This document shows, in pieces, positions 26,672 through 53,404 of a stretch of DNA of 64,000 nt (positions are counted from its first letter, which is position 1; each line of letters opens with the position of its first letter). The position numbers and the translations under genes were made by a program. Under the pieces are notes generated by a model. The model was given only the letters and a program-made list of their open reading frames with translations. It had not been told where the DNA came from and searched no databases. Source of the DNA: a bacterium (GTDB taxonomy: Bacteria > Zhuqueibacterota > Zhuqueibacteria > Residuimicrobiales > Krinioviventaceae). The DNA is taken from contig CAXXMD010000002.1 in NCBI GenBank assembly GCA_963675755.2, positions 2,176,001 to 2,240,000 on the forward strand. Direction: 5' to 3'.

Positions 26672-26698
26672 TATACTCCCCTTGAGATATTTATGTTT

Positions 26699-30287: not shown

Positions 30288-30516
30288 GCCTTTCTGTAAA
30301 TTTTACAACATCAAAAAGCACCAATCCTGTTAAAAGCTTTAAGTATTGATGCAAAGGTTTTACAACAAACCGGATGTTTTTTATTACGGAAAAGGTCCCT
30401 CAGGGTTTCATAGGTGAAAATTTTTATGATGCAGAAAAAGTATGTATAGATGGGATGACAGCAAAGCAATTTTCAGTCATCTTATTCCCCATTTTTTTCT
30501 CAAGTTAATTTAATTT

Positions 30517-30566
30517 AACCGCCCGCTTTACTCGATAAATCCAATTGTACAGATAAGCTCAGATAA
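30517..30566 (+). repeat. GxxExxY-associated repeat, head copy
   Basis: aaccgcccgctttactcgataaat...acagataagctcagataa. Confidence 0.75.
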
Positions 30567-30587
30567 AGTCATATTGAAACGTTTTTT

Positions 30588-30959: not shown

Positions 30960-31010
30960 ACACCCCCATGCTTCGTTTTCAAACTATCTACAACTAACTT
31001 TTATAAATAT

Positions 31011-31050
31011 AACCGCCCGCTTCGCTCGATAAACACAGATAAACGCAGAT
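31011..31050 (+). repeat. GxxExxY-associated repeat, head copy
   Basis: aaccgcccgcttcgctcgataaacacagataaacgcagat. Confidence 0.85.
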
Positions 31051-31170
31051 GCCTTTTTCCATAAGTTATCGTTTGGTTCTGACAGCTTGCCCTTTAAATA
31101 TTAAGTATAATAATTTTAACAAGTTGTAAGTTCTTATGGCAACTAATAAATTTGAATTTAATAATTGAAT

Positions 31171-32091: not shown

Positions 32092-32173
32092 AATTAATAA
32101 AAAAATGGGATTAATTATAAAAAATCAATCATAATATTTTCGCAAGCACATTAATATCAAGATACATAAAATA

Positions 32174-33034: not shown

Positions 33035-33191
33035 AAAATGCTTTCCTGAACATTAAACTATATAATAATACAACTAAATAATAATCAATAATAAATATCA
33101 ACAATAATTTCCCCTGAATTCCCACATACTTTATAATTCAATAAACACATAAACTCCAAATATTGCAAGAAAAATAATATTGCCCAAGTTT

Positions 33192-33223
33192 TTTATCTGT
33201 GTTTATCTGTGTTTATCTGCGGT
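33192..33223 (-). repeat. GxxExxY-associated repeat, inverted tail copy
   Basis: (tttatctgtg)2 tttatctgcggt. Confidence 0.8.
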
Positions 33224-33344
33224 CAATTAATTTAAACGAAACCTACCTGAGGCAAATACCTATTTTACCAGGTAAACAGATTCAGAAAAAGAAGGTTAAT
33301 GATTACTGCTTTGCGGTTGATATCAGCAAATCCCCGTTAATATA

Positions 33345-36424: not shown

Positions 36425-36972
36425 ACAAATCATCAGAATTCTACAAAGCCAGGTACGAAAACAAATTCAGAGAACTGCTAAGTAAAGACGCTATCCAATC
36501 CCGTATTGAAGAATTGGGTAAACAGATCACACAGGATTACGCAGACAAGGACCCGATTCTCATCGGTGTATTGAACGGATGTTTTATCTTTTTTTCAGAC
36601 CTTGTACGTCAGGTTGAACTGGACCTTGAAATTGATTTTATCAAACTGTCCAGCTATGGCGATGCAAAAATTTCTTCGGGCAAGGTCACTGTTTTAAAAG
36701 ACATTAATGCAGATTTAAAAGATCGTCATGTATTAATTGTTGAAGATATTGTAGACACCGGGTTATCAATAAGGTACCTGAGAAACAAACTTCTTCAGTT
36801 TAATCCTGCTTCATTAAAATTTGTTTCTCTGTTGTACAAAGAAAATAATGCTGACCTGGACTTTGATATCGATTATGTGGGATTTAATATACCCAATGAA
36901 TTTGTTGTAGGATATGGACTGGATTATAAACAGATTTTACGTAATTTACCCGCAGTGTATGTAATGGAATAA
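36421..36972 (+). CDS. hpt: Hypoxanthine phosphoribosyltransferase
   Basis: VLIVEDIVDTGLS, FVVGYGLDY, RNLP. Confidence 0.95.
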   Translation: MNKSSEFYKARYENKFRELLSKDAIQSRIEELGKQITQDYADKDPILIGVLNGCFIFFSDLVRQVELDLEIDFIKLSSYGDAKISSGKVTVLKDINADLKDRHVLIVEDIVDTGLSIRYLRNKLLQFNPASLKFVSLLYKENNADLDFDIDYVGFNIPNEFVVGYGLDYKQILRNLPAVYVME

Positions 36973-36987
36973 AATAAGAATCGACTT

Positions 36988-39042
36988 ATGGAAAACGAAA
37001 AAAACAACATATTTAAAAAATCTAATAAACCGCCCAAAGGTCCGGATAACAATCCAAACAAACCCGGTGGTCCTCAGGGACAAAAACCGGAAGGGCCGCA
37101 GTGGAAAAAAGCATCCCGAAATCTGCTGTTTTGGATCGGTTTGTTTATTGTTGCAATTATTATCTCTCAACAGATAACTACACAACGCCAGCAGGAGCAA
37201 ATTATAAAGTTCAATCGCTTTATGGAACTGCTGCATGATGGCAAAGTGGAAAGTATTCTGGTTGAAGATACAATTCTCTATGGAAAATTAAAGGGATCAG
37301 ATCCGGATAACCCTGAAAGTACAGCTACAAATTTCAGAGTGAATCTACCGCCAGCCAGACTTGATTTTGATACCATTGAAAAATGGCGCAGCGAGTATGA
37401 TCTCAAAGAAATGGATTTTAAACAACATACCCCGGGTGTTTGGGGTTATTTGTTTACGGCTTTACCATGGCTTCTGCTTATAGGATTCTGGATTTTCCTG
37501 ATCCGTCGTATGCAGGGTGGAGGTGGTTCCAAAGGTATATTTAGCTTTGGTAAATCACGTGCCCGTATGTTTACTGAAAACTTTCCCAAAGTTACATTTA
37601 ACGATGTAGCCGGTGCGGATGAAGCCAAAGTGGAACTGCAAGAGATCATTGAATTTTTAAAAGAACCTGAAAGATTTCAAAAACTTGGCGGCAAGATCCC
37701 CAAAGGCGCTTTATTACTAGGCCCCCCGGGAACCGGTAAAACCCTGTTGGCAAAAGCAGTTGCCGGTGAAGCCGGTGTGCCCTTTTTCAGCATGTCTGGT
37801 GCCGACTTTGTGGAAATGTTTGTCGGTGTGGGTGCATCCCGTGTTCGTGATCTTTTTGAAAATGGCAAGAAAAATGCCCCCTGTATTATCTTTATAGACG
37901 AGTTGGATGCTGTGGGTCGTCATCGTGGCGCCGGTCTGGGTGGTGGTCATGATGAACGCGAACAAACCCTGAACCAGCTTTTGGTTGAAATGGACGGATT
38001 TGAATCTACTGAAGGTGTCATTCTGGTTGCGGCTACAAACCGCCCCGATGTACTTGATTCCGCGCTGCTGCGCCCCGGTCGTTTTGACAGACAAATTGTA
38101 GTAGACCGCCCCGATGTTCGCGGTCGCGAAGGTATCCTCAAAGTGCATTCCCGTAAAATCCCCATTGCTAAAAATGTGGATATGAACATTCTGGCTAAAG
38201 GTACTCCCGGTTTTTCAGGTGCAGATCTGGCCAACATGGTAAACGAAGCCGCATTGCTTGCCGCTCGTAAAAACAAGACCAAAGTTGAAATGCAGGACTT
38301 TGAAGAAGCCAAAGACAAAGTAATGATGGGTACCGAACGAAAAAGTATGCTCATCAGTGAAAAAGAAAAAGAAAGCACAGCCTATCACGAAGCCGGTCAC
38401 GTACTGGTTGCGCGCCTTACACCTGGCTCTGATCCGGTCCACAAGGTTACCATTATACCTCGAGGACGTGCATTGGGTGCTACCATGACGCTTCCCCTGG
38501 ATGAAAAACACAATTACTCACGTACCTATTGTTTGGCATTATTACGTCATCTGTTTGGTGGACGTGAAGCGGAAAAACTCATCTTTAACGAATTGACAAC
38601 CGGTGCAGGTGATGATCTGAAACGCGCTACCGAATTGGCACGTAAAATGGTTTGTGAATGGGGTATGAGCGATAAATTGGGTCCCATCACCTATGGTGAA
38701 AAACAGGAAGAAATCTTTTTGGGTCGTGAAATTGCACAACATCGTGATTACAGTGAACAAACTGCGCAAACGATCGATTCAGAGATCAAAAAACTGGTAG
38801 ATGATGCAGTAGCAGATGTTCAAAAATTACTCAGCGACAATAAAGACAAACTGGAAGATATTACCCAGGCTCTGCTGATACGTGAATGTCTGGATGGTGA
38901 AGAAATTGAAAAAATTATGAATGGCGAAGAATTACCGCCTTTCGATAATGGCAAGAAAAAGAAAGCCACCAAAAAGAAAACACCCAAAGAGAAAAAAGAG
39001 CCTGAAATAGAACCTGAAACAGATCAGGATACAGAAGAATAA
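36988..39042 (+). CDS. ftsH: ATP-dependent zinc metalloprotease FtsH
   Basis: 2 [28 protein letters not shown]. Confidence 0.97.
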
Positions 39043-39060
39043 GAAAATATCATACATGTA

Positions 39061-39097
39061 AAAAAAGCCGGTAAAAAATTTTTTATCGGCTTTTTTT
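39061..39097 (+). terminator. Intrinsic terminator after ftsH
   Basis: aaaaaagccggtaaaaaattttttatcggcttttttt. Confidence 0.65.
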
Positions 39098-39137
39098 ATA
39101 TTGTTGAATTTTTAAGCAATTACAATTATATTCTTTT

Positions 39138-39980
39138 ATGAGTAAAAGCAATAAGGTTTGGGCAATCCGGAACAACAAGCTGGATCTTGCACAAAACACA
39201 CTGATAATGGGCATCATCAACACCACCCCGGATTCTTTTTCCGATGGTGGCAAATTCAACTCGGTTGATTCAGCAGTCGAACATGCCTACCGGTTACAGC
39301 AGCAAGGTGCAGATATTCTTGACATAGGCGGCGAATCCACTCGTCCCGGTGCTGATCCCGTTTCCGAACAACAGGAACTGGATAGGGTAATACCTGTAAT
39401 TGAAGGATTAAAAGATATTTCAATCCCCATTTCTGTTGACACCTGGAAATCGGGTATCGCTAAACACGCACTTAATGCAGGAGCTCATATAGTAAACGAT
39501 ATCAGTGGTCTGCATTTTGATCCTGAAATGGCCAATATCGTTGCTCAATACAAAGCCGGACTTGTAGCAATGCATACCAAAGGTACCCCGCGAAATATGC
39601 AAAGCAATCCGGTTTACAATGACTTGATTGCAGAAATAAAAACCTATTTACAAAACGCATTGCAAATTGCTCTCAATGCGGGTATATCAAAGCAGCAAAT
39701 TGTTATCGATCCCGGTATTGGGTTTGGTAAAACACTGGAAGATAATTTCAAGATTATTCGCGAACTGGTATCCTTTAAAGAGCTTGATTTACCCATACTT
39801 TTGGGTCCATCGCGAAAATCATTTATAGGAAATACATTAAACCTTCCTCTGGATCAACGATTGGAAGGGACAATAGCGGCTGTAACCGCGGGAATTTTGA
39901 ATGGTGCAGATATTGTTCGTGTTCATGATGTACTTGAATGCAAACGTGCTGTAATAATTGCTGATAAAATTAAAAGTTAA
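39138..39980 (+). CDS. folP: Dihydropteroate synthase
   Basis: TPDSFSDGG, GGESTRPG, DPGIGFGK, SRKSF, RVHDV. Confidence 0.96.
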   Translation: MSKSNKVWAIRNNKLDLAQNTLIMGIINTTPDSFSDGGKFNSVDSAVEHAYRLQQQGADILDIGGESTRPGADPVSEQQELDRVIPVIEGLKDISIPISVDTWKSGIAKHALNAGAHIVNDISGLHFDPEMANIVAQYKAGLVAMHTKGTPRNMQSNPVYNDLIAEIKTYLQNALQIALNAGISKQQIVIDPGIGFGKTLEDNFKIIRELVSFKELDLPILLGPSRKSFIGNTLNLPLDQRLEGTIAAVTAGILNGADIVRVHDVLECKRAVIIADKIKS

Positions 39981-39986
39981 AATTGT

Positions 39987-40775
39987 ATGTTTGTCCTCTT
40001 TAAAATAGGATTCTTACCTGTAACCATTATGGACATATTGGACATTATGGTCATGTCCTTTATTATCCACAAAGTCTATAACTTTTTGCGTGGTACCCGT
40101 GGCGTGCAGATGCTGGTGGGGCTGGTTATTTTAATTATCTTTTCCGGACTGGCACCCATGTTCCAGATGAAAGGGCTTACCTGGATTTTCGAAAACCTGC
40201 GCACCATTTGGCTTATTGCGTTTGTAATCCTCTTTCAGCCTGAATTGAGACGTATTCTCATCTATATTGGACAAAACCGTGTTGTCCGTACCCTTGTCAA
40301 AGTCTCAGACAGTAAAGTAGTGGACGAGGTTGTAAAAGCAACCGTATCACTGCACGATCGTGGTTATGGGGCACTCATTGTATTGGGACGTGAAACCGGT
40401 TTACGTACCATTAATGAAACCGGTGTCATGATACAAGCCGAAGTTTCTGAACAACTGATTTTATCAATATTTAATCCCAGATCTCCCCTGCACGATGGAG
40501 CAATTATCATCCAAAACGACATAATCGATGCCGCCAAGTGCATTCTGCCCATTTCTGAAGAGAACCAGGCAAAAACCGAGTATGGTACGCGCCATAAAGC
40601 CGCACTGACCATGTCGGAAGAATCAGACGCAATGGTCATTGTCGTTTCTGAAGAAACCGGTAAAATCTCTGTTGCAATAGATGGAAAATTCCAAACAGAT
40701 CTCAATGCAGAAATGCTTGAACACATCATCATTGAGGGTTACAGGTACGGTAACACCAATATTGAAAAGTCCTGA
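39987..40775 (+). CDS. cdaA: Diadenylate cyclase CdaA/DacA
   Basis: 3 TM, FQPELR, PLHDGA, GTRHKAA, VSEETG. Confidence 0.9.
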   Translation: MFVLFKIGFLPVTIMDILDIMVMSFIIHKVYNFLRGTRGVQMLVGLVILIIFSGLAPMFQMKGLTWIFENLRTIWLIAFVILFQPELRRILIYIGQNRVVRTLVKVSDSKVVDEVVKATVSLHDRGYGALIVLGRETGLRTINETGVMIQAEVSEQLILSIFNPRSPLHDGAIIIQNDIIDAAKCILPISEENQAKTEYGTRHKAALTMSEESDAMVIVVSEETGKISVAIDGKFQTDLNAEMLEHIIIEGYRYGNTNIEKS

Positions 40776-40780
40776 TCCTT

Positions 40781-41926
40781 ATGAAATCATTATATAGCAA
40801 AGTTATTTATCTTTTCATTTTTTTCACCTGCATTACACTTGCATCAACTCCCGAGGAAGGCATATTTGCTGTCATATCTCCAGCAGTAACATTTGATAAT
40901 CGCCCCATGCTTTGGAAAAACAGAAATAGCGACAGCACAAATACAGCTTTGCACGCATTCAGAGGGAAAAAATACGACTTTATAGGTCTAATCAAAAACA
41001 ATGATACAACCGCAGTACTGGCAGGACAAAACACATCTGGCTTTGCCCTGGTATTCAATACGGCTATGGACCGAAAGAATACCAATTCAACTAACCCGGC
41101 AATTCTGGTAAAATCCGCTTTGGGAGAATGCGCAACAGTTCAGGAATTCCAGGATTTGCTAAACACACAAACCGGTCCGTCACTGTACGGCTGTTTTGAC
41201 AATCGCGGTAATTGTGCTGTTTTTGAATCAACATCAGATTCTGTCATTCAGTTTAATGTATCAAATCCGGAAACAGCACCAAACGGATTTCTGGTGAGAC
41301 AGCAATTTTCAATGAGTGCTTTAACTCAACTCGAATCAGATTCATGGCCTTACCACCGCACTAAACATCTATTAACGCAACAGGCAGAACGAAAAAATAT
41401 CGCTCCGCAATACCTGCTGCAAGTTGTCGCCAGGGATGTCACGAGCAAAGATCTGGACCCTGCTCCACTCCCCTTTGACGGACGTTACAAAGACGCTCCA
41501 AAACAGTTTGTCAAGACAGAAAACACCATTAAAAGCTACCGTACAACCAACACCTTTGTCTTTTATGGTTCTTCTCCTAATAAACCGGGACAGGCAGGAT
41601 TTTATTACATTGCAGGAGATCCTATATGTGGTGTTGCGGTGCCCCTCTGGCCGGATTGTGGAGAGGTCCCCAAATCATTACAGGGAAATGGCTATTTTTC
41701 AACCAGCAGCGCAATTGAAGCAATACATAAAAGAATATATCATAAATCGAAATGGCCGCATTATTTTGATTCAAAATTGCTGGCCAAAGGCAATAAATCG
41801 GTCTATAAAAGAAACCTCGAATTTGAACAGAAAATGCTTAATACAATATCTTCTGAAGCAGATAACAATAAACTTTTAGAAACTCAGCAATCCTGGGCAC
41901 AACAGGCTTTTAAATTGCTGAAATAA
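40781..41926 (+). CDS. Exported Ntn-hydrolase (C45-like) homologue, probably lacking the nucleophile
   Basis: AVISPAVTFDNRPMLWKNR resembles the family N-terminus but without the preceding Cys. Confidence 0.5.
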   Translation: MKSLYSKVIYLFIFFTCITLASTPEEGIFAVISPAVTFDNRPMLWKNRNSDSTNTALHAFRGKKYDFIGLIKNNDTTAVLAGQNTSGFALVFNTAMDRKNTNSTNPAILVKSALGECATVQEFQDLLNTQTGPSLYGCFDNRGNCAVFESTSDSVIQFNVSNPETAPNGFLVRQQFSMSALTQLESDSWPYHRTKHLLTQQAERKNIAPQYLLQVVARDVTSKDLDPAPLPFDGRYKDAPKQFVKTENTIKSYRTTNTFVFYGSSPNKPGQAGFYYIAGDPICGVAVPLWPDCGEVPKSLQGNGYFSTSSAIEAIHKRIYHKSKWPHYFDSKLLAKGNKSVYKRNLEFEQKMLNTISSEADNNKLLETQQSWAQQAFKLLK

Positions 41927-41966
41927 TTACTATTTTTAAACCCTATTTTCAAGTTGTGGAGTTGTT

Positions 41967-43781
41967 GTGTCAGGCAAGATTCCTGCGGATAAAATTGAAC
42001 AAGTAAGACTGGCCTCAGATATTGTTGAAGTGGTTTCCCGCTATTTAACATTGAAAAAAGGCGGCAAAAACTATTTCGGTTTATGCCCATTCCATAAAGA
42101 AAAAACTCCCTCTTTTAGTGTTAACGCCGAAAAACAGATTTTTCATTGTTTCGGTTGTGGTGAAGGCGGCAATGTGTTCAATTTTGTTATGCGCACAGAA
42201 AACATCACATTCCCGGAATCCATCCGTCTACTGGCCAAACAAGCTGGCATTGAAATTCCTGAAGATGAAGAAAATCTTGCAGATTACCGCCACAAAGAGG
42301 CTCTGTTTTATGCCAATAACCTGGCAAAAGCCTTTTATCTACACAACCTGATTTCCGAAAAATCCGCTCAAAAAGCAAGAGATTACCTGGCTGATCGTGG
42401 TATAGGCCCAGACCTCTATGAAAAATATGGTATTGGTTACGCGCTTGACGGCTGGGACAATCTCATCAAACACGCAAAACAAAAAACAGTCAACATAGAA
42501 GTCTTGTTTCAGGCTGGCCTGGTATTGCAAAATAAAGAAGGCGGATATTACGATCGTTTTCGTGGACGGGTAACGTTTGCTATCCACAATACCAGCGGGC
42601 AGGTCGTAGGTTTTGGTGCCCGTCGCATTATCAACGACAACTCGCCCAAATATATAAACACACCCGAAACAGATGTATATCAAAAACGTCAGGTGCTTTA
42701 TAATCTGCATAACGCTCGTGAGGCCATACGAGAAAATGATCATGTCATTATTGTAGAAGGATATACCGATATAACCGGAATGGCAATGAAACAGTTTAAC
42801 AACTGTGTAGCAACCTCCGGTACGGCACTTACCGCTGACCATGCTGCATTGCTTCATCGCTATACCAAAAACGCGACCTTGTTATTCGATGGCGATTCTG
42901 CTGGTGCTTCTGCTGCGGTTCGTGGTGCAGAAATCCTGATGGAAAACGGTATGGATATCAATATCTGTCTGTTACCCGGTGGCCAGGATCCGGATGAATT
43001 TGCACGCAATAACGATCACCAAACCATAAATACATTTCTTGCCAAAGCTCAACCCTATGTTGACTTTAGACTGGATCAGTTTAAAAACGTTGACAAGGGA
43101 GAAAATGCCGCTCAAAAATCAGATCTTACCCGTGATCTTTTAATGACCTATGCAAAAGTGACAGATCCCATTAAACGCGCGTATATGGTCAAAGAACTGT
43201 CAGAGAAACTGAAACTGGATGAAAGTATCCTCTGGAATGAAATAAAAAAAATGCAGCGCCATGTACCCAAACCCGCAGTTGAACAACAGGAAAAAGCAGC
43301 CCCGACAAAAGATACCGCTTTTTTTAAAAGTAAACGGGGAGCTGCAGAACTGGGCCTAATGACTTCGGTATTTTTATTTCCTGACCTCATCCCTGATATT
43401 CTAAAAAACGCGAGTCTGGATCTGTTCAGTCATCCGGAAATACATGATTTTTTCCACCATCTTGAAACAGACAGGATTGAATCCAATGATTTTGATGGTA
43501 CCCGCTATCTGTCATTCATCGAAGATCCATATATTGCCAGAAACCTTTCTCAACTTTTAGCTCAAGATAACCAGGCAGATAATCAAAAATCAGTCACTCA
43601 ATATGCCAAAGAATGTATAGTTACAATACAATTGTCAATTGTAGATATAGAAATTCAAAACACGCGCAAAGAAATGCAAAATAGAACGGCTGTAAATCAA
43701 CAAGAGGTTGTGGAAAGATACCTATTTCTACAACAAAAAAGAAAAGAAATAGCAAGTGGTTCCTTTATTTCCTTTAACTAA
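41967..43781 (+). CDS. dnaG: DNA primase
   Basis: CPFH...CFGC zinc finger, KYINTPET, VEGYTD, FDGD Toprim. Confidence 0.96.
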   Translation: MSGKIPADKIEQVRLASDIVEVVSRYLTLKKGGKNYFGLCPFHKEKTPSFSVNAEKQIFHCFGCGEGGNVFNFVMRTENITFPESIRLLAKQAGIEIPEDEENLADYRHKEALFYANNLAKAFYLHNLISEKSAQKARDYLADRGIGPDLYEKYGIGYALDGWDNLIKHAKQKTVNIEVLFQAGLVLQNKEGGYYDRFRGRVTFAIHNTSGQVVGFGARRIINDNSPKYINTPETDVYQKRQVLYNLHNAREAIRENDHVIIVEGYTDITGMAMKQFNNCVATSGTALTADHAALLHRYTKNATLLFDGDSAGASAAVRGAEILMENGMDINICLLPGGQDPDEFARNNDHQTINTFLAKAQPYVDFRLDQFKNVDKGENAAQKSDLTRDLLMTYAKVTDPIKRAYMVKELSEKLKLDESILWNEIKKMQRHVPKPAVEQQEKAAPTKDTAFFKSKRGAAELGLMTSVFLFPDLIPDILKNASLDLFSHPEIHDFFHHLETDRIESNDFDGTRYLSFIEDPYIARNLSQLLAQDNQADNQKSVTQYAKECIVTIQLSIVDIEIQNTRKEMQNRTAVNQQEVVERYLFLQQKRKEIASGSFISFN

Positions 43782-43857
43782 TACATTAAGTGAATCCTTA
43801 TTCACAACAGTCTTGAGCATATAGTCGTAAATTTTCTCGAAATTTATGTTTTTTATA

Positions 43858-43886
43858 TTGACAATATATTTGTTTTTTAATATATT
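43858..43886 (+). promoter_or_regulatory. sigma70-type promoter upstream of the peptide gene
   Basis: TTGACA-17 bp-TATATT. Confidence 0.55.
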
Positions 43887-44047
43887 CATGTTGCGGTTAT
43901 AGGTAATCACTAAAACAGGAGGGGTATAAGGACCAAAATAGTTTAACATTATTGTATCTGCTATACTGAATTAGTATATAATCAGTAAAATCTTCCCTAC
44001 CGAGAACAAGAGTCATGTCAATCAAACTTCAAAAAAGGAGATTCGAC

Positions 44048-44347
44048 ATGAGAAAGAGTTTTATTTTTATTATGGTAGGGTTAGCATACGTTGTAATAGC
44101 CATGGCAGCATCATGGGCAAACACGTCTAGTGCTCTGGACAAAACGCTGGAAATCATTGGACTTTCACAAAAAGCAGACACCAGCACGATACAGCAGATA
44201 TCCGATGAGTTGAAACCTATGTCCGACAACGCAAAAGGAGAAAAAGAGCAGCAAAAGACTAGTATCCTTAAAAATTCAAGCAATTTATTAGCTTATTATG
44301 TACCGGTACCGCCTCCGGGGAATCCAGGTACCGATCCCAAAGACTGA
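44048..44347 (+). CDS. Small secreted protein / candidate signalling-peptide precursor
   Basis: AAGGAG RBS; signal peptide; low-complexity linker; C-terminal LLAYYVPVPPPGNPGTDPKD. Confidence 0.7.
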   Translation: MRKSFIFIMVGLAYVVIAMAASWANTSSALDKTLEIIGLSQKADTSTIQQISDELKPMSDNAKGEKEQQKTSILKNSSNLLAYYVPVPPPGNPGTDPKD

Positions 44348-44419
44348 TTTTAGAAAATTTGATAATACACTTTACGAGCAACTAATACATATTGACATGA
44401 TCTTTTGTTCGAGGTACCT

Positions 44420-45493
44420 ATGATTAAAGGCAGATATAATTTCACATTGATAACCAAAATACTAAACAGTTGGGTATTGTGTTTAGTATTTTTGGTTATT
44501 ATTTCATATTTGCCACATTGGCCAATGCCAATCTCCAGTTGGATAAATCTTGGGCTCTACGCCTTGTCCTTTATTCTAACTTTTTCAATCCTCATCAAAG
44601 ATAAATACAGCCTTTTCACGTTTTTACCATTTTCATTGTTCTTTCTGGGTTGCCTGTTACTGTTACCCGCAATGTTTATTGGTGATGATTTGATATTCGG
44701 CAGTAACCTGGTATCCATCCTCTATTACAAGTATATCTTTTTATTTTGCATTTTCATGTTTGCTTTCGCAGTATTGAATTATGCTTCGCAGGTTGCATTG
44801 ACTCCAAAACGGCAATGGATACTTTTCCTGGCATCATTTGCTTTTACTTTGGGAGTCTTTGTATTTCACTTTCACGATATCTTTTCCCCGGAAGTTACAA
44901 ACATATTTAATAAAAAGTTCTTCCAAGGCTCACTCACCTATCACCTGCTGCCTGTGGTTGCATTGTTTTCATATGGCATTTTAAATCCATACTTGAAACC
45001 CAGGTATGGTGAATATTCTCACTCTATCATGACCGTTCTGGCATTATTGAGCATTCGTGAACTTGGTACAGCCATATCCGAATTAAAGCATGTCTTTCTT
45101 TTCGGAATCGATCAAATATTCCTCACACTTGCTTTAATTTTGTTAAACTTTTTTCTATTCAAAAAATACAACTTTTTATCTTCAACAACCGGTGCGATTT
45201 ATTCTCAAATTGTCAACAATGATCTGGATATTGGGAACCTGCGGCTCGAAAGTCGTGACAGAAAAGGCTTTAAAATCTTTGCCGCTTTTGTATTTTATTT
45301 TTACCAGAGGAAAAATATCATTCTCCCCTTTCTCTTGTTTCTGGTTGTAGGCTTTAAATATCTCAATCCGCCAATTATAGTAAGCCTCAATATTCTTGCG
45401 TTTGCTATTGTAACTTTTTTTGTCTTTTTCTACTTTATTGTTATATATAATAAAAAGAACAAGAATCAAGATTTTTACATTCAAAAGATATAA
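44420..45493 (+). CDS. Polytopic membrane protein of unknown function
   Basis: About 9-10 hydrophobic segments, no recognised enzymatic motif; GAGGT RBS before ATG 44420. Confidence 0.7.
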   Translation: MIKGRYNFTLITKILNSWVLCLVFLVIISYLPHWPMPISSWINLGLYALSFILTFSILIKDKYSLFTFLPFSLFFLGCLLLLPAMFIGDDLIFGSNLVSILYYKYIFLFCIFMFAFAVLNYASQVALTPKRQWILFLASFAFTLGVFVFHFHDIFSPEVTNIFNKKFFQGSLTYHLLPVVALFSYGILNPYLKPRYGEYSHSIMTVLALLSIRELGTAISELKHVFLFGIDQIFLTLALILLNFFLFKKYNFLSSTTGAIYSQIVNNDLDIGNLRLESRDRKGFKIFAAFVFYFYQRKNIILPFLLFLVVGFKYLNPPIIVSLNILAFAIVTFFVFFYFIVIYNKKNKNQDFYIQKI

Positions 45494-45530
45494 AGGATCT
45501 AATTCATGAACAACATAACTGGGAGTAACT

Positions 45531-46439
45531 ATGGGTAGGGGCAAAAACAAAATACTGGGCAAAAGTTCAGAGATCAGCCGGGTCCGGCGATCTGTGAAAG
45601 CAATGAATGACAAGCAGGAAAATGTCTTGTTAGTTGGCGAAGTTGGTAGTGGTCGCGCGTTGATTGCGGCTCAACTCCATGAAACCGGCGACCGCAAAGA
45701 CAAAAAAATGGTTACCGTACTATGCAGTGCCATTGATGACACAATAGAACCTGATACTATTTTTGGCAATTCCAAAGATCCCGCAGTTTACAATGGTGAC
45801 CTGGATGCTAAAGAAGGTACTATCTATTTTGACAGTGTCGATCAATTATCTGCAGAATTGCAAAACAGATTGTACAATTTCATTTCCACCGTAAATCCCA
45901 AATCCTTGAATGCTCGTATTATTGCTTCAGCTGATCCATCGCTTGAAAACAAAATACGTGAAGGTGAATTTAAACTTGAACTTTTTCAAAAACTGGACGA
46001 GTTTAGGATCAACATCCCATCTATTCGGGAAAGAAAACAGGATATTCCATTTCTATTCAGCCACTTTTTAGATAATTTCTGTGCCGAATATGAAAAACCG
46101 CTTCCTACAGTACCTTTTGATATTTTTGAAGCTATTCTGGAATATGACTGGCCAGGTAATGTGAGTGAACTAAAAAATAGTGTTAGAAATCTGGTTATCA
46201 TGTCACCTGTTGGAGAGTTGTCACCGGAATTTTTACCATTCCGAGTTCAACCCAATCCACTCGAAGTACTTGCAAGTCGCGACCTTACCTCTGCTGTTTC
46301 CGAGGTAGAAAAATTCCTGATCCGCAAAGCGCTTGCTCGTTACGAAGGCAATCAGTCCAAAGCAGCACAGTTGTTACAGGTTTCGGAAGCCACATTGCGC
46401 TATAAAATGAAAAAATACGGCTTTCAAAACATTAAATAA
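45531..46439 (+). CDS. Degenerate sigma54-interaction (bEBP) AAA+ domain with Fis-type HTH, no sensor domain
   Basis: GEVGSGR, RERKQDIP, YDWPGNVSELKN, GNQSKAAQLLQVSEATLRYKM. Confidence 0.85.
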   Translation: MGRGKNKILGKSSEISRVRRSVKAMNDKQENVLLVGEVGSGRALIAAQLHETGDRKDKKMVTVLCSAIDDTIEPDTIFGNSKDPAVYNGDLDAKEGTIYFDSVDQLSAELQNRLYNFISTVNPKSLNARIIASADPSLENKIREGEFKLELFQKLDEFRINIPSIRERKQDIPFLFSHFLDNFCAEYEKPLPTVPFDIFEAILEYDWPGNVSELKNSVRNLVIMSPVGELSPEFLPFRVQPNPLEVLASRDLTSAVSEVEKFLIRKALARYEGNQSKAAQLLQVSEATLRYKMKKYGFQNIK

Positions 46440-46465
46440 ATACCGGGGATGGATTCTGTGCGGAT

Positions 46466-47233
46466 TTAGGCAATATATTTAAATGTATTCCTGAATTCGT
46501 GCAAACCCATCAATTTCAATCCCGCATTTATTCCTTTATTTTGCTGTTCCTGATCATTATATCCCCATTCAGCCATTACGCATTGGATATTTGTGTCTTT
46601 TATCTTTAATAAAGTGTCAACCTGATCATCCACATACCAGATTTTATCTGCAGGTAATTGGTGTTTTTGCTGAATATCAAGTAATATTGATCGCTTACTG
46701 CGCTGTTTGTCTGCGGTAAACAGATTTTCCCGGACCAATGCAATATTTCGGTTTGCTAACAGCTTTATCACAAAATCTATTTTCTTTGTGGTAATGATAT
46801 AGAGGTTTTCCTTCACAGGAAAATTTATCAAGAAATCATCCATGCCTTCATACATGGGATTCAATTGCAGCCACAAATCCAAATGGTTGCTCGAAATATC
46901 TTCTCTAACCCGGTAAAAACTGTCAAAAAATCCCTGCCAGCGGTCTTTGTGTTCATCGGCAAATCTGTCAAAATCCTGTTGATTATTGATCTCTATTCCT
47001 TTTTCTATGGCTAACAGTATAAATAAAAAATCTGCGCCTGCTCGAATATAATTCCGGATTCGTTTAAATGTTTCCACCAAAGAATCATCCAACTCTTGGG
47101 GAGAACTCACCCGAGCATCCCCCTCCAGATTATAATATGCATTATAAGCGACTATTAAACATTCATTTACACTATTGCCAATTACTCCGTCAAAATCCAG
47201 AGCAAGTACGTGTTCATTAACATTAAATCCCAT
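46466..47233 (-). CDS. HAD-superfamily hydrolase
   Basis: LDFDGVI, ITTK, YVDD, EWGY; CAGGAG RBS before ATG 47233. Confidence 0.8.
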   Translation of the reverse strand: MGFNVNEHVLALDFDGVIGNSVNECLIVAYNAYYNLEGDARVSSPQELDDSLVETFKRIRNYIRAGADFLFILLAIEKGIEINNQQDFDRFADEHKDRWQGFFDSFYRVREDISSNHLDLWLQLNPMYEGMDDFLINFPVKENLYIITTKKIDFVIKLLANRNIALVRENLFTADKQRSKRSILLDIQQKHQLPADKIWYVDDQVDTLLKIKDTNIQCVMAEWGYNDQEQQNKGINAGLKLMGLHEFRNTFKYIA

Positions 47234-47316
47234 TATATCTCCTGATATTTTTACAAAAAGATAGTGATTTTTTTCTTCAAAAAAAATCACTGTTCACCAA
47301 ATAACTCAAATAAATC

Positions 47317-47345
47317 TTGACATCAAAAAAAAAAATTAATACATT
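47317..47345 (+). promoter_or_regulatory. sigma70 promoter of leader-trpB2 unit
   Basis: TTGACA-17 bp (containing A11)-TACATT. Confidence 0.65.
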
Positions 47346-47377
47346 CTTTTAATTCATTATTGAGGATTTTTAACACT

Positions 47378-47449
47378 ATGACAAAACACAACAACAACTG
47401 GCAATTTACCTGGGCTTGGTGGTGGAATATGTTTTGTTATAGTGGGTAA
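47378..47449 (+). CDS. trpL: Trp leader peptide MTKHNNNWQFTWAWWWNMFCYSG
   Basis: GAGG RBS; 5 TGG codons in 23 aa (3 consecutive); below the ORF-track length cut-off. Confidence 0.85.
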   Translation: MTKHNNNWQFTWAWWWNMFCYSG

Positions 47450-47483
47450 GAGCAGATAAACCTGAAAAATTTTTAATATACTC

Positions 47484-47516
47484 AAGCCCGCTTAAATTCA
47501 AGCGGGCTTTTTTTTT
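47484..47516 (+). terminator. Attenuator terminator
   Basis: aagcccgctt-aaattc-aagcgggctt followed by a T run; alternative pairing of 47441-52 with 47481-92. Confidence 0.85.
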
Positions 47517-47561
47517 GCAATTAATTATTTTTTTTTTAGTCTTTTAATTGATGGAGGAAAC

Positions 47562-48938
47562 ATGAGCGCCACTAAAATTCTTCTCAGCGAACAGGATATG
47601 CCAAGACAATGGTATAACCTGGCAGCAGATTTACCAAAGCCACCATTGCCACCATTAGGTCCTGACGGAAACCCCGTATCACCCGAAATGCTTGCACCGG
47701 TTTTCCCAATGAACCTGATTGAACAAGAAGTAAGCACCCAACGTTGGATTGATATCCCTGAAAAGGTATTGGAAATATACAGCATGTGGCGTCCTTCTCC
47801 CCTGTACCGCGCAAAACGTTTAGAAGCTCTGCTTGATACCCCGGCACGCATCTATTTCAAAAATGAAGGTGTTAGCCCTGCAGGTAGCCATAAACCCAAT
47901 ACTGCCATTGCACAAGCATATTATAACAAAGAATTTGGTATTAAACGCCTTACCACAGAAACAGGTGCAGGACAATGGGGAAGCGCCCTCAGTTTTGCAT
48001 GTGCTCTGATTGGTTTGGAATGTAAAGTTTATATGGTACGCATCAGTTTTGATCAAAAACCTTTCCGCCGGTTAATGATGGAAACCTGGGGCGGGAAATG
48101 CATCCCCAGTCCCAGTACCGAAACCAATGCCGGCCGTCAGATTCTTGAAGAAAACCCGGACACTCCCGGAAGTCTCGGTATCGCTATCAGTGAAGCAGTA
48201 GAAGCTGCTGTATCTGATCCTACCGGCGAAACCCGTTATTCATTGGGTAGCGTATTGAACCATGTTATGCTTCACCAGACCATTATCGGCCAGGAAACAA
48301 AAAAACAGCTTGAAATTGCCGGTGAAAAACTGCCGGATGTTGTTATCGGTTGTGCTGGCGGTGGTAGTAACTTTGCCGGTCTTGCATTCCCCTTTGTATT
48401 AGACAAAGTAAACGGTGCGGAAATTGATATCATTCCGGTTGAACCTTCCTCTTGTCCTACCTTAACCAAAGCCCCATTCCATTATGATTTTGGTGACAAT
48501 GCGGAAATGACACCACTCATGGCTATGCACTCTCTGGGTCACAAGTTTGTACCACCACCAATCCATGCTGGTGGATTGCGCTACCACGGTATGGCACCAT
48601 TGGTAAGTCATGCGGTTGAACTGGGTCTTATGAATCCATTGGCACTTGACCAATTGGAATGCTACGAAGCAGCTCTTACCTTTGCTCGTACTGAAGGTTT
48701 TATTTCTGCTCCCGAAACTTCGCACGCTATTGCTGCTGCTATCCGTGAAGCGAAAAAAGCTAAAGAAGAAGGTAAAGAAAAAGTTATCGTTTTCAACTGG
48801 AGTGGTCATGGATTGATGGACCTTACCGGTTACGATGCATACATGCGCGGAAAACTGATCAACTATCCATTACCGGAAGAAGATATTGCAAAATCTATAT
48901 CTGTTTTGGAAAATCTGCCCAAAGCAGTAATCAAATAA
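47562..48938 (+). CDS. trpB2: Tryptophan synthase beta chain, TrpB2 type
   Basis: [48 protein letters not shown]. Confidence 0.93.
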
Positions 48939-48946
48939 TTCTATTT

Positions 48947-48980
48947 ACCGGAATTTGCCTTTTGGGCAGATTCCGGTTTT
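48947..48980 (+). terminator. Intrinsic terminator after trpB2
   Basis: accggaatttgcc-tttt-gggcagattccggt followed by T run. Confidence 0.7.
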
Positions 48981-48999
48981 TATTTTTTAGGCACATATT

Positions 49000-49257
49000 A
49001 TGATTGATCAACACGATAAACTTGAAAAACGCTGTCCCATGCTGGGGCACCCTATCCATTTCCACTATTGCAGGACCACCACAAAAGATACGCCCTGTCG
49101 TAAAATCATGGACTGCTGGTTCGAGCAAATCCCTATACAGGAGTTTGTTAAGGAACATTTTACAGAAGAAATGATTACTGCAATGGAACAGCCCCCCAAA
49201 CCCAAAATGCTCAGCCTCATCGAACTCATCGAAAAAGCAAAAAAGTCTCAGGAATAG
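49000..49257 (+). CDS. Small Cys-rich hypothetical protein
   Basis: RCPMLGH...YCR...PCRKIMDCW, four spaced Cys. Confidence 0.65.
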   Translation: MIDQHDKLEKRCPMLGHPIHFHYCRTTTKDTPCRKIMDCWFEQIPIQEFVKEHFTEEMITAMEQPPKPKMLSLIELIEKAKKSQE

Positions 49258-49349
49258 ACGATAAATTACTCCAATTACCCCTGCGCCCTCTGCGTTAAAT
49301 ATATTATTGCCCGGCACCCATCAGATGCCAGGCAAATAACATCCAGACC

Positions 49350-51170
49350 TTAAAATATCCCCTTGATCTTGTTGGTTACGTTCTTTTTCTCTTCTTCAAT
49401 GCGGGCCTCGACCTCTTTTTTCTTGTCGTCGATCTGCTTCTGGTATTCATTTACCCTGGCTTCCACATCGTCGATGCGTTTTTGCAGTTCGGCGTTCTTG
49501 TCCGCAACCAACTGCTCAACCTGTTGTTTTTTTGCATCCACTTTAGCATTTACAGCTGAACGGATTTTCTGTTTCGCTTTATCCACTTCATCACCCACCA
49601 TGGATTTTAGCGCGTTTGCAACCACATTATCCAGATTAGAATCGAGTGAGAAATCGGTATCGTCCGGTGTGCCGGTATAGCCGGCCTTGAAATTCACAGT
49701 CGAGATATCCGTAAACACATCACGCACTACCGCGGCCGTCTTGCCTTCGCTCTCAGCAAAAGCAAAACCCATTTGGGATCCGGTAAAATCCACATTTCCA
49801 CTTAATTGTTCTTCCAGAACATCGAGTTTGGCCTGCACGCGACCCGCTCCCTTGGTGATGCTGCTGGGCAGAATTTTTGTGCTGCTCAACGGTACGTCGT
49901 TAAACGCCAGATTCGATGCATCCAGCGCAAAATGCTCTTCCGGAGATTCCCCCATATAGTCCAACTCTCCGGTCAAATTCAAAGCCGAACTGTTTGCTTT
50001 AGCACCTTTGATTTCGAACGTGGTTGTTTTGCCGATAATAGGCTGTTCGGATACAATATCGTTCACAATACCGCTAAACTGGTACTGATTCGGCACCAAT
50101 CCCGAAAGCTCTATCTTTTTGATCCAAAATGACGGAAACACATTCTTGCCGGAAAAATGTACAGTCTGCCCTTTATAACGCGGCGGTTTTTCTTTTTTCG
50201 GTTTGTCGGATTTGAATTTTTCCGCGTATCCTCTTGCTTGGCTGGTCAATGACAATACCCGGTTAACACGACTCACAACCTGACTGCCAAATAACAAAAT
50301 CCCGATTTCCTGAGTTGAAATATCGGGCAGTTTAGCTTTATCCATTGCCGCAGAAATATCATCACGCACCCAATCATCCATGGATTTCAATCCGTTACGG
50401 GATTGCTCAATATCCGTTCCAATACCCGATTTTGATGTTTTCACAAACTGTTTTAAAGAATCCATATCCCCCTGAATGGTTTTAAGCGTTGTCAAAGTAG
50501 ACTGGAGTTTATCTACACTTTTAATCTCATTCGGGTTAATAGAATTTATTCTAGTTTTCATATCATCCAGATCCTGGGTGATATTTGTTTTGGCAAAAGT
50601 ATCATCCCATTGGGTATATGTCTCCCGCAAACCGGATTGCAGCGAGTCAATCTTTGCCGGGGCACTCAGATCCAGAATAGCAATAATACTGTCAACATTT
50701 ACCTTGCCGGAAAAAGAGCTAAAATCCAGTTCAGGCACATCAGACACCTTGGTTTCAAGCCTATCAATAGTTTTTGAAATGAATCCCGGTTTCTTTTCCC
50801 CATCGTTGGATTTGGTTTTCCAGGTTCCGTCAGTGGTTCGCTCGGTCCCCCAGGTAACATTGCTGAGCTGAACGTTATCGATCACCACCTTGTTGTACAA
50901 CAAGGGATAAAACTCCATATCGTACTCGGTTTTACCACTTGTCAGCATGTTTTTCCAAGGATCTTTGGGGTCAGTAACCTGCAGACTGTCCCATTTAAAA
51001 TGTAATTGCAATAACGATACATCCAGATTATCGATCTCTACTTTTGCCTGCAAAGCGTTCGATGCTGTTTTTTCCAGTATGCCCTCTAGCCAACTGTCTG
51101 TTAAAAACAATCCCAATACAAAAACAATCGCTGCCAGCACCAGGAGGGCTATAATTCCTTTCCAACGCAT
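49350..51170 (-). CDS. TIGR03545-family protein (AsmA-like)
   Basis: MRWKG + TM, AKVEID, KPPRYKGQ, SNLD, coiled-coil tail; paired with TIGR03546. Confidence 0.8.
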   Translation of the reverse strand: MRWKGIIALLVLAAIVFVLGLFLTDSWLEGILEKTASNALQAKVEIDNLDVSLLQLHFKWDSLQVTDPKDPWKNMLTSGKTEYDMEFYPLLYNKVVIDNVQLSNVTWGTERTTDGTWKTKSNDGEKKPGFISKTIDRLETKVSDVPELDFSSFSGKVNVDSIIAILDLSAPAKIDSLQSGLRETYTQWDDTFAKTNITQDLDDMKTRINSINPNEIKSVDKLQSTLTTLKTIQGDMDSLKQFVKTSKSGIGTDIEQSRNGLKSMDDWVRDDISAAMDKAKLPDISTQEIGILLFGSQVVSRVNRVLSLTSQARGYAEKFKSDKPKKEKPPRYKGQTVHFSGKNVFPSFWIKKIELSGLVPNQYQFSGIVNDIVSEQPIIGKTTTFEIKGAKANSSALNLTGELDYMGESPEEHFALDASNLAFNDVPLSSTKILPSSITKGAGRVQAKLDVLEEQLSGNVDFTGSQMGFAFAESEGKTAAVVRDVFTDISTVNFKAGYTGTPDDTDFSLDSNLDNVVANALKSMVGDEVDKAKQKIRSAVNAKVDAKKQQVEQLVADKNAELQKRIDDVEARVNEYQKQIDDKKKEVEARIEEEKKNVTNKIKGIF

Positions 51171-51775: not shown

Positions 51776-53404
51776 TTATTTCAATGTATTAACCAATTGA
51801 ACAATATCCAGAATATTTAATTCCCCGTCGTTATTGATATCTGCAGATGCTTTGGCTTTATCAGAATATTGCACCGGGTTCATAACCAGATTTGCAAGTT
51901 CTTTAACATCAACCAGATCAATTTCATCATCCCCATTCACATCCCCTTTGAGTCGATATTCTACAGCCGCAAGCGCATCAACCAATCCCCATCCATACAA
52001 ATTATTGGGATTATCGGCCTTGTCTGCCGTGAACATGAGTGCTTCCCGAACCTGCATGGGCGTCCAGTTGGGATGTGCTTCCAAAATCAAAGCACAAACA
52101 CCGGCTACAATCGGAGTCGAGTAGGATGTCCCTGTCCCATACTCATACCCGGTATTGTCATCCGGATCAGCACATCGCACACCCGTACCCATTGCAACCA
52201 CTTCTGGTTTAATACGCCCGTCATAGGTGGGTCCCGCCGAACTGTAAGCGGCAATATGTTCTTTATTATCCACAGCGCCAACAGAGATTACACTGTCCCC
52301 ATCTGCGGGAGCGGTAATATAATACCATGCATTATCCCGTTCATTTCCGGCAGAAGTACAGATGATAATTCCTCTTGAAACGGCAAGATCCGATGCAATA
52401 GTCATGGGTGATGTGTTACCATCCATGTCCGTATATGTATACCAGTCCAGATACCCAATTGAACAACTGACAATATCCGCGCCCAGGCTGTCGGCCCATT
52501 CAACCGCCGCTATCCAGTGGTCTTCTTCACCGGCATATTCCTGAATCAGATCCTCGGTTTTGGCCAATAGATATGTTGCTCCAAAGGCAGCCCCATACAA
52601 TTCACCGGATTTTTCCGCACCCATTGTAGACAATACTTTGGTACCATGATTGTGCTGATCTGCGTGATCAACCTCCGGATCATTTTCCGTATCATCATCA
52701 TTACGCAAAAAGTCATATTCTCCGGCAATCTTGAGATTGGTAAAAACCTCATGGTCGGTTTTAAAACCCGTGTCCGTAATACAGATTAAAACATCTTTAC
52801 CGGTCAATCCCATATCGTGCACATCCGGGACTTTGATCATTTCCAACTGCTGCAAAGATGAGCCATAAAAATACAAATGGCTGTTAATCTGGAAATCCTG
52901 ATACGGTTCCATACGTGTCACAGGTTCCGGTTGAATGGATTTCCTTCCCGCAATTATCCGGATCCCTTTAACATAGTCCTGTGAGGCTACAACATTCAAC
53001 TGGTCAACATCCAGAATACCGCTTACAGCGTTTAACCATTTACTCTGGTGCCGAACGTGCAAACCCATTGCTATTAATTCATCTATATACTGTTTTTTTA
53101 CGGGCAGATCATAATAATCCATTTTTTCGGCATTTACTTTTGAACGTCTTTTCAGGGCCCGTTCGGTAAGTGCAACTGTATTTGTTTTTTTCAACAAATC
53201 AGATTGCACATTTTCACCCTTGTCCATCAAAAAAATCCAGACCGGCACATTTCCTTCAAACAGTTCTGAATTTATAAAACTTTGCACACTAGAATGAATG
53301 ACAGGATCACTTTTCTCCGAAATATGCCCACTTGACGCAAATACAGATTCAGCAAAAATGAAAAGCAGTCCTATCATCCAAAATTTTAAATAACGTTTAT
53401 TCAA
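51776..53404 (-). CDS. Subtilase (S8) with C-terminal dockerin
   Basis: DTG, HGT, SAGN, GTSYSTP; GDVNGDDEIDLVD...ADINNDGELNILD. Confidence 0.9.
   Translation of the reverse strand: MNKRYLKFWMIGLLFIFAESVFASSGHISEKSDPVIHSSVQSFINSELFEGNVPVWIFLMDKGENVQSDLLKKTNTVALTERALKRRSKVNAEKMDYYDLPVKKQYIDELIAMGLHVRHQSKWLNAVSGILDVDQLNVVASQDYVKGIRIIAGRKSIQPEPVTRMEPYQDFQINSHLYFYGSSLQQLEMIKVPDVHDMGLTGKDVLICITDTGFKTDHEVFTNLKIAGEYDFLRNDDDTENDPEVDHADQHNHGTKVLSTMGAEKSGELYGAAFGATYLLAKTEDLIQEYAGEEDHWIAAVEWADSLGADIVSCSIGYLDWYTYTDMDGNTSPMTIASDLAVSRGIIICTSAGNERDNAWYYITAPADGDSVISVGAVDNKEHIAAYSSAGPTYDGRIKPEVVAMGTGVRCADPDDNTGYEYGTGTSYSTPIVAGVCALILEAHPNWTPMQVREALMFTADKADNPNNLYGWGLVDALAAVEYRLKGDVNGDDEIDLVDVKELANLVMNPVQYSDKAKASADINNDGELNILDIVQLVNTLK

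Follow-up and report, generated by a model that had tools for sequence, protein, structure and literature searches.

A conserved three-gene operon encoding a small exported or anchored protein, a polytopic membrane protein and a sensor-less enhancer-binding protein derivative, with a candidate fold-back leader RNA

A bacterial DNA stretch of 64,000 nt (assembly GCA_963675755.2, contig CAXXMD010000002.1, positions 2,176,001-2,240,000, forward strand; hereafter the window) was analysed around three same-strand genes, designated pep, mem and reg. The initial annotation had described one sigma-70-like promoter followed by three tightly spaced, co-oriented genes, and all of these were present, the genes as entries of the window's list of open reading frames (ORFs). 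The basic features of the locus were:

43858..43886, + strand: sigma-70-type promoter, TTGACA-17 nt-TATATT, 11/12 consensus matches
43893..44047, + strand: 5' leader of about 155 nt, its start placed from the -10 box
44048..44347, + strand: pep, 99 aa, exported or signal-anchored protein
44420..45493, + strand: mem, 357 aa, polytopic membrane protein
45531..46439, + strand: reg, 302 aa, receiver-less derivative of the bacterial enhancer-binding proteins (bEBPs)

Four related loci were obtained by a genome-contig search and gave, together with the window, five loci in four lineages: L001 (98% identity to the window), L002 (57%, labelled candidate division KSB1), L003 (54%) and L004 (53%, labelled uncultured Cytophagia). 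In an excerpt of PMC11683472, KSB1 is placed in the Fibrobacterota-Chlorobiota-Bacteroidota (FCB) superphylum. The order pep-mem-reg was kept in all five loci, with gaps of 72-104 nt and 34-37 nt (72 nt for pep-mem and 37 nt for mem-reg in the window). In two further lineages pep and mem both occurred on contigs of matching size (8616 and 2954 nt), and in one genome they carried consecutive NCBI locus tags (PLP19_21905 and PLP19_21910). The small upstream ORF, which the initial annotation expected to accompany mem homologues, was present at 5/5 close mem loci in the four lineages. No close mem homologue was seen without pep, the remaining close mem matches being fragments on contigs of 1.3-1.8 kb. 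Between lineages, identity was 70-73% for reg, 53-57% for mem and 43-49% for pep. A C45-like gene and dnaG lay upstream in the three loci whose contigs were long enough (L001, L002 and L004), and a HAD gene on the minus strand and a TrpB-like gene lay downstream in 4/4 related loci. Because this whole block (C45-like gene, dnaG, the trio, HAD and TrpB-like genes) was syntenic in the same clade, co-occurrence of the trio was weak evidence of a functional link.

The -35 box TTGACA was unchanged and the -10 box read TAnnTT in 5/5 aligned loci; as a class, promoter-like sites in the 43600-46700 region stood at chance level (11 observed, 11.7 +/- 3.3 expected). No terminator-like site was found by a simple scan of 43600-46700. 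The pep start (ATG 44048) had AGGAG 7 nt upstream. The ORF list also gave a 110-aa reading of pep from ATG 44015, but this ATG was rejected as the start because its frame is open into pep in the window only, being closed by a stop in L001, L002 and L004; pep was thus taken as 44048-44347 (99 aa). The same ATG, within leader element A (see below), opens a short upstream frame, which in the window is in frame with pep (44015-44047), in L002 and L004 has 3 codons, and in L003 (342-377) extends over 11 codons to a TGA that precedes the pep ATG by 1 nt. For mem, ATG 44420, preceded by GAGG, was preferred; TTG 44405 was out of frame with mem in L003 and was discarded. These comparisons showed pep, mem and reg to be laid out as one predicted operon, with a single conserved sigma-70-type promoter and a leader of about 155 nt ahead of them.

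Seven relatives of pep were recovered among 5.8 billion proteins, and the pep alignment contained nine sequences. The protein had been described as a 99-aa product with a signal peptide, a polar spacer and a distinct tail, and this layout was found in 9/9 sequences: a signal or transmembrane helix (residues 1-24), a conserved ALDKTLExIG motif (29-39), a variable polar spacer (about 40-80) and a Pro-rich tail (83-99). The tail, too, was kept in all nine, with the pattern L-[AVT]-x3-P-[VI]-PPP and with P86, P88 and P89 unchanged. The N-terminus was near-invariant (MKKxxxFIMVGLVYVVIAMAASWANSSTALDKTLExIGI), and since 20 of the 23 invariant columns fell within residues 1-38 it was conserved above the tail. 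At fourfold-degenerate sites of pep the window and the other lineages were 24-32% identical; with synonymous sites thus unconserved, the N-terminal conservation pointed to selection on the protein. Helices at 3-24 and 27-36 were predicted in an AlphaFold2 model of low mean confidence (pLDDT 54.7), the remainder being of low confidence. No Pfam, NCBIfam or PADLOC match to pep was found. AMA/A and SWA/N are both plausible signal-peptidase sites, so that the helix may be cleaved or retained as an anchor. Alignment and model together showed pep as a protein predicted to be exported or anchored through an N-terminal hydrophobic helix and otherwise disordered, with a conserved Pro-rich tail end. Because the N-terminal helix and the juxtamembrane motif were its most conserved parts, pep would suit the role of a membrane-anchored partner no less than that of a processed, diffusible autoinducer.

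The second gene product had been described as polytopic, with a charged loop and no kinase or cyclase domain, and the present analysis agreed. Hydropathy and the positive-inside rule suggested an N-in topology with about 10 spans and a cytoplasmic basic region at 247-299 (9 K/R), and no domain was matched. The AlphaFold2 model of mem (pLDDT 85.9, pTM 0.84) had 12-13 helices, about 10-11 of them membrane-spanning. Eight close relatives of mem were found, and searching 1.84 billion cluster representatives with a profile gave 61 matches at E<=1e-3, of which 43 were at <=1e-10 and 4 at <=1e-30. These 61 proteins were 61-388 aa long and always stand-alone; as none exceeded 388 aa, no form fused to a kinase, cyclase or other output domain was present among them. 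A family alignment of 38 sequences was composed of the window protein, 4 close relatives and 33 of the 61 profile matches, leaving aside fragments and the partial-coverage full-length matches P0030, P0051, P0055 and P0060. A homologue search with this alignment returned two further proteins.

Only N43 and S255 of mem were conserved in at least 90% of the 38 members. Outer patches of conservation were formed by P32, H33, W41, N43 and Y47 (loop 1 and transmembrane segment TM2) and by F86, G88 and G94 (loop 2); elsewhere, G197 was conserved, as were L239, L246, K249, S255, G258 and Y261 at the end of TM8 and in the next cytoplasmic helix. Mapping on the predicted topology showed conserved patches on both faces, LPHW/W.N outside and K..Y..S.FG.FY inside. 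A role of mem as a peptidase for pep was considered and rejected: the H, S and E of GEYSHS were invariant in the close clade only and were lost in distant members, and this loss, together with the few invariant residues of the family, argues against a catalytic site.

Searches of mem against described families were uniformly negative. Pfam gave no family for the window protein and, across the 38 members, one stray Acyl_transf_3 match (E 0.0041) in 1/38; NCBIfam matched 0/38 members, a PDB profile search gave no match at E<=1, and Foldseek of the model against PDB gave none at E<=1e-3. The 50 listed Foldseek matches were all eukaryotic or viral seven-transmembrane (7TM) receptors with E>=0.023. 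Their query-normalised TM-scores (0.26-0.39) lay below the fold criterion of about 0.5, and a 7TM, GPCR-like fold was rejected as generic helical-bundle resemblance. A protein-atlas search matched no named cluster; its best scores (0.83, 0.80 and 0.78) belonged to unnamed or 'WESB_1763 family' clusters and were too low for a lead. The description of mem as an orphan was thus borne out, no known transporter or enzyme family being matched by Pfam, NCBIfam, the PDB profile search or Foldseek. Judged by sequence and model, mem is an undescribed stand-alone family without enzyme-like invariant residues. Neither pep nor mem fell in a described family in the libraries searched; the literature search covered GAFTGA-less bEBPs, KSB1 genomes and long-range mRNA pairing, not the operon itself.

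The domains of reg, which had been taken for a DNA-binding bEBP derivative without an input domain, were found by Pfam as follows:

45552..46010, + strand: AAA+ domain Sigma54_activat (PF00158), residues 8-160, Pfam 3.1e-22
46026..46256, + strand: lid domain AAA_lid_14 (PF25601), residues 166-242
46296..46418, + strand: Fis-type helix-turn-helix (HTH) domain HTH_8 (PF02954), residues 256-296, Pfam 4.6e-14

Only 7 residues precede the AAA+ domain and Pfam gave no input domain, in accord with that assignment. Motif losses were read from a HMMER alignment to ZraR (1ojl). Walker A was GEVGSGR (K to R, with R42 invariant); the GAFTGA position was occupied by DPAV followed by a 6-residue gap, the motif being missing and the region variable in 5/5 orthologues; Walker B was YFDS (E to S), or YFEN in three of the 5 orthologues; and K stood at both Arg-finger positions aligned to ZraR RQDLYYRL. 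The losses in Walker A, GAFTGA, Walker B and the Arg fingers were common to all five orthologues. From about residue 160 to the end reg was near-invariant, and the HTH region (about 240-302) was identical in 5/5. VpsR and ZraR were among the best PDB sequence matches, and PspF structures matched at E around 1e-23. No NCBIfam cut-off was reached by reg (25 listed of 26 matched models; best PrdR, 185.5 bits vs 795), and PADLOC matched only the AAA+ and HTH part of the RtcR_PspF2 CARF_AAA_HTH model (positions 167-480/481), with no CARF domain. Of the marks of the bEBP family, reg therefore carried the AAA+ and HTH domains and lacked GAFTGA, the ATPase residues and an NCBIfam equivalog match.

Because the GAFTGA loop and the catalytic residues are lost, reg is predicted to be unable to remodel the sigma-54 holoenzyme. 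According to a part of PMC3162934, the GAFTGA-deleted bEBP homologues TyrR, DhaR, HupR, VpsR and YplP are sigma-70-dependent or not sigma-54-dependent. We infer that reg would be a sigma-54-independent, ATP-independent DNA-binding regulator. Being sensor-less, GAFTGA-less and, by its residues, catalytically dead, it could reasonably be controlled by protein contact rather than by phosphotransfer. VfmH was rejected as a close analogue, since it has a receiver domain and an active ATPase (PMC10714721, in part). Judged by its residues, reg joins the GAFTGA-less bEBP derivatives already known, of which it is a new form, and does not qualify as a functional sigma-54 activator.

Conservation outside the coding sequences was concentrated in the leader and around the mem start, where the following elements were recognised:

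43955..43962, + strand: leader element D, TATCTGCT, invariant in 5/5 loci and complementary to mem codons 4-7 (element E)
43964..43987, + strand: small leader hairpin TACTG ... CAGTA, 5 pairs; CCTGA ... TCAGG in relatives
43996..44022, + strand: leader element A, ending in TCATGTCAAT, reverse complement of C, with B as alternative partner
44036..44051, + strand: Shine-Dalgarno (SD) sequence AGGAG of pep and element B, ATTCGACATGA, overlapping the pep start codon
44391..44414, + strand: element C, ATTGACATGATCTTTTGTTCGAGG, just before the mem ATG and including the mem SD GAGG (44411-44414)
44429..44436, + strand: element E, GGCAGATA, mem codons 4-6, identical in 5 loci including synonymous positions

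Fourfold-degenerate sites of dnaG, pep, mem, reg and the TrpB-like gene were 24-38% identical between the window and L002-L004, which amounts to saturation. The blocks invariant in the five-locus alignment (the -35 box, D, A, B, C and E) include non-coding ones, and against this saturation those indicated selection. Element C was unchanged in the five loci but for an A to G change in L002 and L004, where pairing with element A is retained as G-U. The mem-reg spacer had no comparable conservation beyond its SD in the aligned loci.

Given the five-locus alignment and no other prompt, RNAalifold proposed D:E, the small hairpin and A:C, a structure that encloses the pep ORF and covers the mem SD. 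It contained 36 pairs in 179 cells, 96.1% of them paired vs 34-44% with slid partners, and in the D:E pairing (columns 660-668) 9/9 pairs were kept. D:E and A:C are two separate complementary blocks, nested and antiparallel. As an inverted repeat, A:C matched at 19/19 nt in L003 (406 nt apart), over 18 nt at 89% in L004, and at 10/10 nt plus a gapped extension in the window. Duplex energies were -27.5 to -30.9 kcal/mol for A:C in the four lineages and -10.7 to -14.3 kcal/mol for D:E. Alternatively, A could pair with B (duplex energy -12.7 to -14.6 kcal/mol; A-B spacer 18-23 nt across loci) in a local hairpin of -11.4 to -15.5 kcal/mol with the pep SD in its loop. When same-strand windows within +/-6 kb (1245-2369 per lineage) were compared as partners of A, C ranked first in 4/4 lineages, and the observed energy between the leader and the mem translation initiation region (TIR) was reached by 0, 1, 0 and 0 of 1000 dinucleotide-shuffled leaders in the four lineages. 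In the small hairpin, whose loop varied from 14 to about 30 nt, 2 of 5 pairs had double compensatory changes. It was the only part to show them, because the long-range helix was nearly invariant: 23/31 long-range pairs never varied and were thus uninformative, and three A:C pairs alternated solely between A-U and G-U. We infer that the leader may fold back into a helix that would hide the site where mem translation starts, and that A and B could instead form a hairpin over the pep start codon; the leader-mem complementarity would tie pep and mem to one transcript.

In the minimum free energy (MFE) folds of the window and L002, other leader segments paired with the mem start region, and the mem start may be hidden by more than one alternative leader partner. 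Rfam gave no family at E<=1 on 43700-46600. Two further roles for element C were tried and discarded. As a mem promoter its -10 box would overlap the ATG and reads TACCTA, TGTCAT or ACTCAT in three lineages; as a sigma-54 promoter, TTGGCAT occurs in L002 and L004 only (TTGACAT in the window and L003) and the -12 element is GT, not GC. In the MFE fold of the window, 43891-43908, just past the presumed transcription start, paired with the mem SD and start (44413-44433) in place of A.

We tentatively read pep-mem-reg as a self-contained, membrane-linked transcription switch (a membrane-to-gene module), a reading that we hold somewhat short of probable. The roles of ligand, receptor and effector given to the three products by the initial annotation are plausible and were partly supported. 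In this scheme reg would bind DNA without ATP or sigma-54, as TyrR, DhaR, HupR and VpsR do. Since it has no input domain it would need a partner in trans, for which the co-transcribed mem is the obvious candidate; control would most likely come from the conserved cytoplasmic segment of mem, by binding or sequestration. The small protein pep would be the periplasmic partner of mem, more likely a cis-acting modulator or co-sensor than a diffusible signal; an anchored or periplasmic modulator is preferred because the hydrophobic N-terminus is the most constrained part of pep. Co-folding of pep with mem from their alignments scored 0.36, 0.14 and 0.14 (median 0.14, mark 0.32), which speaks neither for nor against contact. 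The pep:mem ratio would be set post-transcriptionally by the leader, in which D and A may fold back across the whole pep ORF onto the mem start (C and E, covering the SD and first codons) or A may instead close the hairpin over the pep start codon.

Parts of this arrangement resemble described systems. Like TyrR, DhaR, HupR and VpsR, reg has the AAA+ sigma-54-interaction fold and a C-terminal HTH with GAFTGA deleted or defective, and in a part of PMC3162934 those proteins are described as acting at sigma-70 promoters. Unlike them, reg is without a sensory domain; its Walker A Lys, Walker B Glu and both Arg fingers are lost as well. TyrR, DhaR, HupR and VpsR keep N-terminal sensory domains (ACT/PAS, GAF/PAS or REC). 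PspF is a bEBP without an input domain that is controlled in trans through contact with a membrane-reporting protein, with intact GAFTGA and ATPase, at a sigma-54 promoter. The absence of an input domain and the PspF structure matches bring reg close to it, whereas mem is a protein of about 10 TM segments from another family and the GAFTGA and ATPase motifs of reg are lost; PspA, PspB and PspC families were absent from the 9 ORFs of 40781-51170 scanned with Pfam and NCBIfam. In Mlc-PtsG and CadC-LysP, polytopic membrane proteins hold or modulate transcription factors, and in MgrB-PhoQ and CpxP-CpxA small proteins modulate sensors. To these the likeness is one of concept only, the families being unrelated and no sequence or fold similarity having been found.

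The layout had also been judged unlike Agr, ComQXPA and RRNPP systems, and hallmark components of each were indeed not found in the regions scanned. For Agr, AgrB, a histidine kinase and LytTR were absent from the trio, pep and mem having no Pfam or NCBIfam match and reg being AAA+/HTH_8. For ComQXPA, the trio and its neighbours gave no ComQ isoprenyl transferase or ComP kinase family with Pfam or NCBIfam. In RRNPP systems, the Phr-type propeptides are exported by Sec and consist of a signal peptide, a pro-region and a short active C-terminal part. The three-part layout of pep is similar, but no TPR receptor or oligopeptide permease is in the operon (Pfam found no TPR domain in the trio or the scanned ORFs of 40781-51170) and the pep N-terminus is the most conserved part. 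PADLOC anti-phage defence models matched neither pep nor mem. In hok mRNA and MS2 RNA, long-distance pairing hides a downstream translation start. The leader is similarly predicted to pair, from a distant upstream segment, with a downstream start and hide it; the predicted helix differs in bracketing a complete upstream ORF within an operon and has no Rfam match.

Several observations weigh against the proposed switch. The trio lies amid the housekeeping genes tilS-hpt-ftsH-folP-cdaA-dnaG, where a general regulator might equally be placed. Every locus comes from a single clade whose flanking genes are likewise syntenic, so that adjacency of reg is not independent evidence, and the gene context known for mem is that of this clade, beyond which lie roughly 55 more distant mem clusters. 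On the RNA side, double compensatory changes were found in 2/36 pairs, both in the small hairpin; in single-sequence MFE folds A:C was full in L003, partial in L004 and missing in the window and L002; and MFE z-scores were -1.8, -1.1, -4.8 and -0.1 in the four lineages.

The alternative that survives best, although we consider it rather unlikely, is that no signalling link exists: pep and mem would form a structural or transport complex of the envelope, and reg would be an independent, broadly acting DNA-binding protein on the same transcript. The synteny from the C45-like to the TrpB-like gene in 4/4 lineages and the housekeeping neighbours would agree with this, as would the higher identity of reg than of mem or pep, a pattern that a protein with many targets would show. 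The RNA complementarity, moreover, joins pep with mem only. Yet a missing input domain usually implies a dedicated partner in trans, and the 34-37 nt mem-reg gap without a terminator was kept in all loci. For the mem family, neither a fold match nor the signature of a transporter or enzyme was found. The A/C motif did not recur in the rest of the 64 kb (2 exact copies; 6 one-mismatch matches vs 9.2 expected, which is chance level).

A second alternative is that repeats A, B and C act as DNA instead of as an RNA helix, either as reg operators for autoregulation or as the ends of an invertible pep segment. The HTH of reg and the repeats are both invariant, and ATTGACA also forms the -35 box, which makes four copies within 560 bp; besides, the long helix is without double compensatory changes and is missing as A:C from the window and L002 MFE folds. 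But the substitutions in C are A to G and keep G-U pairs, the A-B spacing (18-23 nt) and the hairpin loops are variable, and the nested D:E pair lies outside the repeats and includes synonymous mem codon positions. The orientation of pep was the same in 5/5 assemblies, no recombinase was found within +/-6 kb, and the promoter lies outside the repeats. A role as RNA was favoured because of the nested antiparallel blocks, the G-U-compatible substitutions and the A-B spacing, and the DNA-level explanation is unlikely.

The weakest alternative, which is that of the initial annotation, a quorum-sensing-like circuit with pep as a secreted prepropeptide cleaved (e.g. before YYVPVPPP) into a diffusible autoinducer, mem as receptor and reg as effector, is improbable: the signal peptide, variable and (in the AlphaFold2 model) disordered spacer and conserved C-terminal motif of 9/9 pep sequences, the conserved outer face of mem, the lack of a competing family for pep or mem, and a leader/TIR helix that could raise ligand over receptor expression to the high ratio usual in such systems would suit it, but selection on residues 1-38 as protein is unexpected for a discarded generic Sec signal, the operon holds no processing protease or exporter, and a peptide of about 75 aa would need to cross the outer membrane that cells of the KSB1-labelled relatives presumably have.

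Beyond the trio, the window contained several other features. Upstream (35045-43781) lay tilS-hpt-ftsH-folP-cdaA (cdaA encoding a c-di-AMP synthase), a gene for a C45/AAT-like protein bearing a signal peptide, and dnaG; downstream lay the convergent HAD-like gene and the TrpB-like gene. An 85-aa ORF (49000-49257, + strand) without any Pfam or NCBIfam family adjoined a gene for a TIGR03545-family/DUF748-like protein with a long coiled C-terminus (49350-51170, - strand). An IS3-type transposase pair occupied 22635-23815, its HTH_Tnp_1 ORF overlapping at the end with the rve integrase-core ORF that follows. The low-GC stretch 26303-34000 (GC 0.31-0.34 at 30-34 kb) carried a Mrr-type restriction endonuclease (32174-33034), PDDEXK_3 paralogues (26303-26671 and 30588-30959) and, between them, several family-less ORFs, and is possibly an acquired island. 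On the minus strand, 4310-9148 encoded a 1612-aa protein with a C25 (gingipain-type) peptidase and propeptide, CARDB and a C-terminal FlgD_ig-like domain, and 51776-53404 a subtilase whose C-terminal domain is a type I dockerin. GC fell to 0.289 towards the window end (62001-64000), where a 474-aa ORF without a Pfam family lay at 62458-63882.

If the trio is functionally unlinked, it would amount to a conserved operon of the ordinary kind, of unknown function, from an uncultured lineage. A much bolder claim, and a highly doubtful one, is that of a new one-step class of transmembrane signalling in an FCB-group bacterium, in which a stand-alone receptor without enzymatic output would bind a secreted Pro-rich peptide outside and hold or release a pseudo-AAA+ factor (ATPase-dead and GAFTGA-less) inside, with the leader RNA gating ligand and receptor reciprocally by pairing with either the pep start codon or the mem ribosome-binding site. 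Should the proposed membrane-to-gene module work as read above, it would add a way of joining sensor to effector that lies outside the two-component, sigma/anti-sigma and RRNPP/Agr schemes. The unannotated mem family, with about 61 clusters, would then acquire a function, as would a class of dead bEBPs that automatic annotation can be expected to label as sigma-54 activators. The predicted leader-to-second-gene helix would also be a clean system in which to test whether long-range pairing in an mRNA sets expression ratios within an operon.

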